Origin: a virus
Taxonomy: Duplodnaviria > Caudoviricetes
Length of the DNA stretch: 31,068 bases
Reading direction: 5' to 3' (one strand)
IMG/VR virus record: IMGVR_UViG_3300021957_000181
Coordinates: 1 to 31,068 of that record
The notes under the pieces: model-generated
The model's database searches: none
What the model was told of the DNA's origin: nothing
The model's input: only the letters and a program-made list of their open reading frames with translations
Position numbers and translations under genes: made by a program
Shown here: in pieces, positions 10,344-11,135 of the stretch
How positions within the stretch are numbered: the stretch's first letter is position 1
How the letters are laid out: every line of letters begins with the position of its first letter

Positions 10344-10736
10344 TTAGAAGGCAAAGGTAGCACCTACTTTAGTCGAAACATTATCAGATGCGTCGACATC
10401 CCATGTTGTTTCACCAAACAACTCAACTCCACCAAATACTTCATATGTTGCACCAAGATTGATTTTTGGATCATCAAACGCATTGCTCAGTTGTAATTCT
10501 TCGTTATTGTATACCGGAATGTCCATATCGGCTGTTAGACCAATACCGAACATTGAGTATCCGATTTCAGGAGTAATCTTAACTCCAAAATCATCTACCG
10601 CAGCGCCTGCTGCGTCATTGATCGTATATGCTGCTTCTGTTTCTACGCCCCAAGTAATACCGGTTGCTCCGATTTCATTGGCTGAGACTGATGTTGCCGT
10701 TACAAGAGCGGCTGCTGCGATTGCTGCAAATTTCAT
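10344..10736 (-). CDS. Small outer-membrane beta-barrel (porin-like) protein
   Basis: Ala-rich signal peptide, alternating amphipathic strands, C-terminal KVGATFAF ending in Phe (BAM signal). Confidence 0.7.
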   Translation of the reverse strand: MKFAAIAAAALVTATSVSANEIGATGITWGVETEAAYTINDAAGAAVDDFGVKITPEIGYSMFGIGLTADMDIPVYNNEELQLSNAFDDPKINLGATYEVFGGVELFGETTWDVDASDNVSTKVGATFAF

Positions 10737-10769: not shown

Positions 10770-11135
10770 GATGCCACTTTTCTGTTGCTAGGTAAGTGGC
10801 CAACCCCCTGTGATTATGCCGCTAGGGCAAATCCAGATGGTGCAAAATTATCGTTTGCATTTATGTTTTGTAAACTAGAATACATGTCGATCCTATTTCA
10901 GCCCCATCATAAGCACACTTGCGAAGTCTTTTATTATAACCGCGCTTAATCTTCTTACGTTCACCTGGTTTCCAATGATAGTATTTTTTAGATTTCTTGC
11001 TTAGAGCATCAAACTCATCGCCGCCTTTCATTTTAATACGTGTCGTCATTATGTTTCCAAATGTGCTTGTGGTGGAGCTGCTCGGTACCGCCCCGAGGTC
11101 CATACATCCGTTATTAACGCCTACATTCTATGTAT
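10770..11135 (-). ncRNA. ssrA: Circularly permuted two-piece tmRNA (acceptor piece ~11135-11070, intervening segment 11069-10906, coding piece 10905-~10770)
   Basis: Acceptor piece ends GACCTCGGGGCGGTACCGAGCAGCTCCACCA. Coding piece starts GGGGCTGAAATAGGATCGAC. The 7-bp acceptor stem has the G3:U70 Ala determinant. Tag frame 10858-10814 reads ANDNFAPSGFALAA-stop. Inter-piece pairing CATGTATTC/GGATGTATG. Outer ends are approximate. Confidence 0.93.
10861..11049 (-). CDS. Basic 62-aa ORF starting in the tmRNA intervening segment and reading into the coding piece
   Basis: ATG at 11049 after GGAAAC; MTTRIKMKGGDEFDALSKKSKKYYHWKPGERKKIKRGYNKRLRK... Confidence 0.6.
   Translation of the reverse strand: MTTRIKMKGGDEFDALSKKSKKYYHWKPGERKKIKRGYNKRLRKCAYDGAEIGSTCILVYKT

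Follow-up and report, generated by a model that had tools for sequence, protein, structure and literature searches.

The window, i.e., the whole 31-kb stretch of DNA that was analyzed (31,068 nucleotides), is a fragment of a virus record that is about 17% complete, and it contains T4-like replication genes for a DNA polymerase, a UvsX-like recombinase, and a helicase. Its minus strand carries a complete permuted tmRNA gene, which matches the full Rfam model tmRNA_permuted (RF04321) at 11121-10814 with 78.9 bits (cut-off 47) and the model alpha_tmRNA (RF01849) at 11163-10770, also on the minus strand; ARAGORN, run on the window, made no tmRNA call at this locus. The gene order is that of a permuted two-piece tmRNA, in which an acceptor piece is followed by an intervening segment (IVS) and then by a coding piece. 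The acceptor CCA ends at 11070, G1 is 10905, and the IVS between them (11069-10906) is 164 nt long. In the sequence and the Rfam alignment, the tmRNA features are intact: a 7-bp acceptor stem with G3-U70, a T arm, the encoded CCA, and a tag frame ending in LAA, with the resume codon at 10858 and the tag ANDNFAPSGFALAA ending at 10814. The features of the locus are as follows.

11070..11121, minus strand: tmRNA acceptor piece, the tRNA-like domain's 3' half (helix 2 strand, T arm, acceptor 3' strand, and the encoded ACCA), from the RF04321 and RF01849 alignments and the CCA position; 5' end approximate
10906..11069, minus strand: IVS of 164 nt, the cargo slot, from the sequence; the syntenic locus L126 has 25 nt instead
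11058..11068, minus strand: 5' arm of the IVS closing stem, which leads into a weak Shine-Dalgarno (SD) motif, GGA, at 11058-11056, from sequence, folding, and relatives
10911..10921, minus strand: 3' arm of the IVS closing stem, which also serves as ORF codons 43-47, from sequence, folding, and relatives
10906..11049, minus strand: 48 codons, reaching G1 without a stop, for a small basic phage protein, from sequence, family profile, and purifying selection
10861..10905, minus strand: read-through tail of 14 codons plus TAA inside the tmRNA coding piece, which would be usable only on the uncut precursor, from sequence and relatives
10770..10905, minus strand: tmRNA coding piece, made up of G1, the acceptor 5' strand (including G3-U70), the D region, a short helix 2, the resume codon at 10858, the tag ANDNFAPSGFALAA, and a 3' hairpin, from Rfam and sequence

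The ATG at 11049 opens exactly 48 codons up to G1, and the frame then continues for 14 codons to a TAA (10863-10861) that lies two bases before the resume codon; the remaining two frames of the IVS contain several stops. The SD motif, which is just the GGA, is 6 nt from the ATG, and three close relatives have GGAG and a GTG start at the same place. The closing stem pairs 11068-11059 with 10920-10911 (10 bp, one G-U) and is present in both the MFE and the centroid folds, the z score for folding of the whole region being only -1.5. In relatives the stem is 8-12 bp long and differs in sequence. A first-pass annotation had proposed this anatomy, and every element of it, from the 164-nt segment and its 10-bp stem to the TAA ahead of the resume codon, has been confirmed.

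Permuted tmRNA precursors are described as being cut by tRNA-processing enzymes (in the available part of PMC11915505), RNase P is described as acting at the tmRNA 5' end (in that of PMC3985003), and two-piece tmRNA is reported to be common in marine phages (in that of PMC9004378, the paper on phage Melnitz). The gene in the window shares its gene order, the G3-U70 acceptor stem, and an ANDN...LAA tag with the two-piece tmRNAs of Alphaproteobacteria (RF01849, RF04321) and of aquatic myophages such as Melnitz. Its coding piece is very short, with 47 nt from G1 to the resume codon (10905-10858) and no space for the usual pseudoknot region, a trait common to the loci L126 and L149. Directly after the tmRNA gene lies a gene (10344-10736, minus strand) for a signal-peptide protein with a C-terminal F that resembles a small outer-membrane beta protein; it has no Pfam or PHROG match, and similar genes follow the tmRNA in L126, L149, and L643. 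A search for smpB in the 31-kb record, about 17% complete, found none.

The ORF within the IVS is a real, conserved gene and belongs to a large family of small basic phage proteins. Lysine and arginine make up 17 of its 48 residues, with a pI of 10.2. The first protein search yielded 48 close homologs, and a 43-member profile reached 961 clusters (50% identity) at E up to 0.001, the weak end of which may include compositional matches, and 182 clusters at E up to 1e-10. Matches to phrog_16066 were obtained for 28 of the 43 aligned members (best E 7e-10). Among copies in IVSs, frame and start are always kept, third codon positions vary most, and dN/dS is 0.39 in the closest clade (7 loci, 40 codons, few changes), 0.19 in another set (8 loci, 20 codons), and 0.14 in the L029 clade (4 loci, 39 codons), although the pairs compared are not independent. 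These values bear on a reading in which the ORF is a passenger from a neighboring position that is lost when the spacer is excised and degraded, with little or no translation. The weak SD beside the stem, the modest constraint in the closest clade, and the presence of a family gene next door to a tmRNA gene in L653 are all compatible with this reading. However, the constant frame and start, the variable third positions, and the low dN/dS in the L029 clade argue against it, as does an SD-like motif, scored by a lenient test, before the start of 102 of 184 cargo ORFs among the matches listed. Thus, a passenger of this kind is considered improbable.

In an AlphaFold2 model of the protein (pLDDT 85), a loop connects a short helix to a long basic one. 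The protein is predicted most likely to bind nucleic acid or the ribosome via the basic C-terminal helix. No named relative was found in Pfam, NCBIfam, PDB sequences, Foldseek PDB, VIA-align, or the ESM Atlas, with the proviso that a missing fold match is uninformative for a two-helix model of 48 residues; likewise, comparison of the model with PDB folds gave no chain with a Z of 5 or more. The fold match obtained was to a 53-residue uncharacterized mycobacteriophage protein (TM 0.72, E 0.28). A tblastn search toward cultured mycobacteriophages returned weak matches, e.g., to gp35 of Mycobacterium phage Thyatira. The phrog_16066 genes, Thyatira gp35 included, match the family but are ordinary stand-alone hypothetical genes.

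That arrangement is the usual one. The 80 loci most similar to an IVS-type query were taken from each of four scans, 320 in total; two could not be parsed, and the rest reduced to 165 unique family loci. In this set, 145 copies are stand-alone, some of them with short flanks, 15 lie in a tmRNA IVS, and 5 lie near a tRNA or tmRNA gene. Given this ranking, the share in IVSs is if anything overstated. The stand-alone copies end at ordinary stops, most often 48 nt after the tyrosine of a conserved YNKR motif. The IVS copies end about 11 codons past this tyrosine, just beyond the core, and all 15 unique copies seen as DNA among the matches listed reach G1 without a stop (frame 0 in 11 of them, frame 2 in the other 4). 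They form about four to five groups on a tree (75 rows, few columns, with 55 stand-alone rows sampled). Beyond G1, the length and sequence of the read-through tail vary freely among relatives.

Several family members come from protein records. Two of these, P0034 and P0045, end in V-S-L-stop, which is the consensus IVS end read in the third, stop-containing frame, and P0034 also carries upstream translation derived from an acceptor piece. Known from protein records alone, they are probably IVS copies of this family that bear a stop at the junction; an IMG/VR scan for the P0045 variant found no locus with the P0045 tail among the matches listed. Five other records (P0056, P0061, P0066, P0113, and P0192) have tails like those of the non-stop IVS copies, P0113 and P0192 being judged by eye. 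In P0037, P0044, and P0077, as recognized from the translations in the protein records, the frame runs without a stop into tRNA-like sequence. The apparent tRNA gene, which is tRNA-Gly-like for two of the three, would provide a second possible RNase P junction.

The family in the window is one of many that occupy this position. Pattern scans of IMG/VR covered four ranges of IVS length (10-40, 110-139, 140-170, and 171-201 nt, with at least 120 loci each; 41-109 nt and more than 201 nt fell outside), and a filter for a paired T arm and acceptor stem removed 0, 19, 31, and 27 loci, respectively. Among the matches listed, 184 of 245 unique long viral IVSs have an ORF that covers at least 70% of the IVS, whereas the antisense strand has 48 such cases and 30 dinucleotide shuffles average 35 (maximum 45). 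Still among the matches listed, these 184 cargo ORFs fall into 59 BLAST families, 26 of them with more than one member, and a closing helix of at least 8 bp is present in 160 of the 184 cargo IVSs versus 404 of 1395 (29%) cross-family end pairs. The commonest cargo, which accounts for 42 of the 184 ORFs, is a family of hydrophobic peptides of 38-48 residues (L209, L213, L448, and others) that always end on the junction TGA.

Near relatives have empty or differently filled versions of the slot. The nearest relative of the tmRNA in the window among the matches listed, L126, is syntenic and 80-82% identical on both sides, yet its IVS is 25 nt long. Conversely, in six loci with the cassette found in the window, the IVSs are 88-99% identical and the flanks 45-86%, a difference that could partly reflect coding constraint rather than exchange. 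Among the matches listed, 75 of 170 pairs of loci with flanks at least 90% identical have IVSs that are less than 75% identical, some of these being length variants of one family. Two pairs with flanks 94% identical are especially clear: L003 and L288 have unrelated ORFs, and in L030 versus L119 one IVS is empty. The IVS is thus a general slot for unrelated, exchangeable small genes. T4-like phages contain modular gene slots that are exchanged between conserved flanks, and the tmRNA slot resembles these in that unrelated small ORFs, or none, occupy one site between conserved sequences. It differs in that a single structural RNA supplies both conserved flanks, as its two halves, and the cargo is carried by a stretch of RNA that maturation removes. 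A tmRNA gene here likely acts as a site of gene exchange in lytic-type phages, and the slot exposes dozens of small phage protein families that had gone unrecognized.

In the sampled set, ORF-filled IVSs look like a viral trait. A tmRNA match over the cut-off was present in 146 of 151 sampled Alphaproteobacteria (a tally that includes the unpublished genome G050), and the 30 best-scoring loci have IVSs of 5-73 nt, in contrast to the protein-coding 164 nt in the window. When 20 alphaproteobacterial loci were picked for long match spans, 17 could be parsed, with IVSs of 5-133 nt, and 3 could not. A looser pattern scan parsed 3 of 120 listed loci, and 2 of these are real tmRNAs with hairpin-rich IVSs. 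Two long bacterial IVSs contain an open frame that starts from a TTG beside the CCA. Two bacterial permuted tmRNAs, L845 and L736, have related palindromic IVSs of 151-159 nt, which are probably a repeat element.

A cultured phage also has the arrangement. In Methylophilales phage Melnitz EXVC044M (MZ577097.1; L1086:602-724), a 142-nt IVS at about 46077-46218 is filled by a 41-codon ORF with an SD motif, which is in frame 0 and has no stop before G1. The record annotates SsrA alone there, an example of how annotation overlooks or mis-calls protein genes that lie within a structural RNA's discarded spacer. The ORF resembles the L219/L453 family, whose other members have their own stop. Melnitz is a cultured system in which a sensor role for the missing stop can be asked about directly. 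Three further cultured phages have permuted tmRNA genes with long IVSs, namely Sinorhizobium phage Phosso (L1084, 410 nt), RcXuper (L1083, 109 nt), and DSS3_MAL1 (L1087, 98 nt); the genes in Phosso and RcXuper are unannotated.

Protein genes in a tmRNA IVS were not found in the open literature, supplements and subscription papers apart, and tmRNA database files may hold such IVSs without comment. The odd IVS contents reported in the available part of a survey of 79 phage sequences (PMC11915505) are one tRNA-Ala gene and one repetitive element; a protein gene such as that in the window is not mentioned in that part, and the word "intervening" is absent from the available part of the Melnitz paper (PMC9004378). 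A permuted tmRNA gene with an exchangeable protein-coding spacer is real and apparently undescribed.

These results have led to a model, considered reasonably probable, in which the missing stop is an unselected consequence of the insertion of a swappable cassette, and one transcript is both tmRNA precursor and messenger. The spacer would form a stem-closed loop, so that the closing stem would loop out the gene while the tRNA-like domain folds, and ribosomes would load directly behind the 5' stem arm. On the uncut precursor, they would read into the tmRNA and yield a 62-residue protein with a dispensable tail. A cut by RNase P at G1 would then leave a non-stop message ending on codon 48, the stalled ribosome would be rescued by tmRNA-SmpB, and the tagged 48-residue product would be degraded, until the spacer itself is trimmed away. 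Because a product made after the cut would be tagged and degraded, output would be limited to the time before processing, making RNA processing a candidate timer of gene expression. Furthermore, a ribosome that reaches the last codons would unwind both the closing stem and the acceptor helix, so that translation may compete with maturation. For the exchange of cassettes between phages, the conserved tmRNA halves would serve as homology arms.

What happens at the junction bears directly on this model. The 3' end of the IVS is conserved, and roughly nine in ten of the long IVSs among the matches listed have TGAT before G1; consequently, a gene entering the junction gets a TGA in one frame and none in the other two. 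By majority, the 59 cargo families (matches listed) divide into 16 that are non-stop in frame 0, 13 with the junction stop, 15 that are non-stop in frame 2, and 15 with their own stop, i.e., 28 with and 31 without a stop. The three frames at the junction are used equally (16:13:15, chi-square p=0.85), and so the missing stop follows the frame. In addition, two multi-member families mix stop and non-stop members, and K+R content is the same in non-stop and stop cargo (0.15 each). The missing stop is thus likely to be a by-product of the frame in which a gene met the conserved spacer end. Besides the uniformly non-stop IVS copies of the family in the window, points that weigh against this model are its weak SD motif, the additional protein records with non-stop tails, and the family genes that end within another structured RNA in 4 of the 26 unique loci of that RNA.

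It could be argued instead that the missing stop has been selected and that the slot acts as a sensor of trans-translation, both in this family and in about half of the cargo families. In that case, the protein, whatever its role, would accumulate only under limiting amounts of tmRNA-SmpB or of the tag proteases. Consistent with this idea, all 15 listed IVS copies are non-stop even though they use two frames, the message from the window would end exactly on a codon, and the three protein records that run into tRNA-like sequence offer a second possible RNase P site. The logic also has a precedent in arfA and brfA, which, according to the available part of PMC8012679, are truncated by an internal hairpin or terminator and encode proteins that recruit RF2 and have in common a KH motif, which binds the mRNA entry channel. 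Like ArfA (PF03889) and BrfA, the protein in the window is small and basic, and its message is predicted to lose the stop and its product to be tagged, although RNase P, acting at the tmRNA 5' end, and not an internal hairpin would cause the truncation. However, the junction frames are used equally across cargo families, P0034 and P0045 end as stop-frame IVS copies would, the 145 stand-alone loci need no such control, and the close relative L653, which lies directly upstream of a permuted tmRNA with a 38-nt IVS, has its own stop. If the captures are independent, a non-stop outcome in five of five lineages has p=0.04 when the slot-wide rate is expected and p=0.13 when two thirds is expected, and adding the probable stop variant raises this to p=0.14-0.35. 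The uniformly non-stop IVS copies of this family are thus a hint and not a significant result, and a selected sensor is judged unlikely.

The first-pass annotation had gone further in proposing a feedback like that of ArfA, and it had suggested asking whether the ORF and its missing stop are conserved. Within IVSs they are, in 15 of 15 listed copies, but the case for selection is countered by the 28 versus 31 families, by the even use of frames, and by the 145 of 165 family loci that sit away from ssrA with ordinary stops, a finding that the same annotation had named as one that would count against it. A fuller version of the idea, in which the spacer is an exchangeable expression socket gated by tmRNA maturation and stop-less cargo is tagged by the tmRNA of the same transcript, giving self-sensing feedback for a ribosome-binding phage protein, must be regarded as rather doubtful.

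The part of the proposal that concerns function, i.e., that this phage protein serves as an alternative ribosome-rescue factor, recruiting a release factor and controlled in the manner of ArfA, fares worst. The protein is small, very basic, and linked to ssrA in several lineages, and since the known rescue factors ArfA, BrfA, and ArfT are unrelated to one another (available part of PMC8012679), a lack of homology is compatible with a convergent rescue function. However, no sequence or profile relation to ArfA or BrfA is detectable. When the family profile was aligned with 19 ArfA sequences by hhalign, the probability was 0.2% and 56 of 100 column shuffles scored as high, in agreement with the remark of the first-pass annotation that clear ArfA homology is lacking. 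PF03889 matched none of the 43 family members, and a PDB sequence search with either family profile gave nothing at E under 0.2 and no ArfA chain, although a control with the Pseudomonas-family ArfA found solved ArfA chains. On these grounds, ArfA homology is rejected. The KH motif is absent from the ORF in the window and from all 15 IVS copies; after the core, it occurs in 39 of 144 stand-alone loci, mostly of one clade, and in 8 of 138 distant representatives. A simple scan for a terminator-like hairpin plus U before the stop, which does not cover RNase III sites, found no such ArfA-type truncation signal in 144 complete stand-alone copies. Non-stop mRNA expression is thus not family-wide but is predicted for the 15 IVS loci only, and the other cargo of the slot is heterogeneous and includes hydrophobic peptides. 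ArfA-like feedback is possible but unsupported, and a rescue factor of this type is highly improbable.

Two other relationships were considered. Mimicry of the SmpB C-terminal tail is rejected, since hhalign gave 0.3% with 26 of 60 shuffles as high (11 of 20 fetched SmpB loci could be parsed). For bS21 (PF01165), hhalign gave a weak match of 3.3% over 28 columns in the C-terminal half, with 0 of 100 column shuffles as high; in the controls, the reversed profile scored 12.7 versus 16.1, 7 of 60 shuffles reached the score of the N-terminal part, and there was no Pfam or PDB match. The likeness of the family to bS21 is at present a weak lead from sequence comparison.

Some RNA elements near members of this family deserve mention. 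At L009:1-231, beside a phage tmRNA with this family's cassette, there is a match to the cspA thermoregulator (82 bits) together with a tRNA-Trp. A conserved structured RNA of 48 nt lies at L1059:501-548 and at 36 other IMG/VR loci (L1046-L1082), just before a downstream start. It is composed of two stacked helices and a pseudoknot, with two-sided changes at 2 pairs; a search of Rfam with three loci gave no match at E up to 5, and the element is a candidate riboswitch or ribozyme. In 4 of its 26 unique loci, a gene of the window ORF family has been inserted in front, with its stop inside the RNA.
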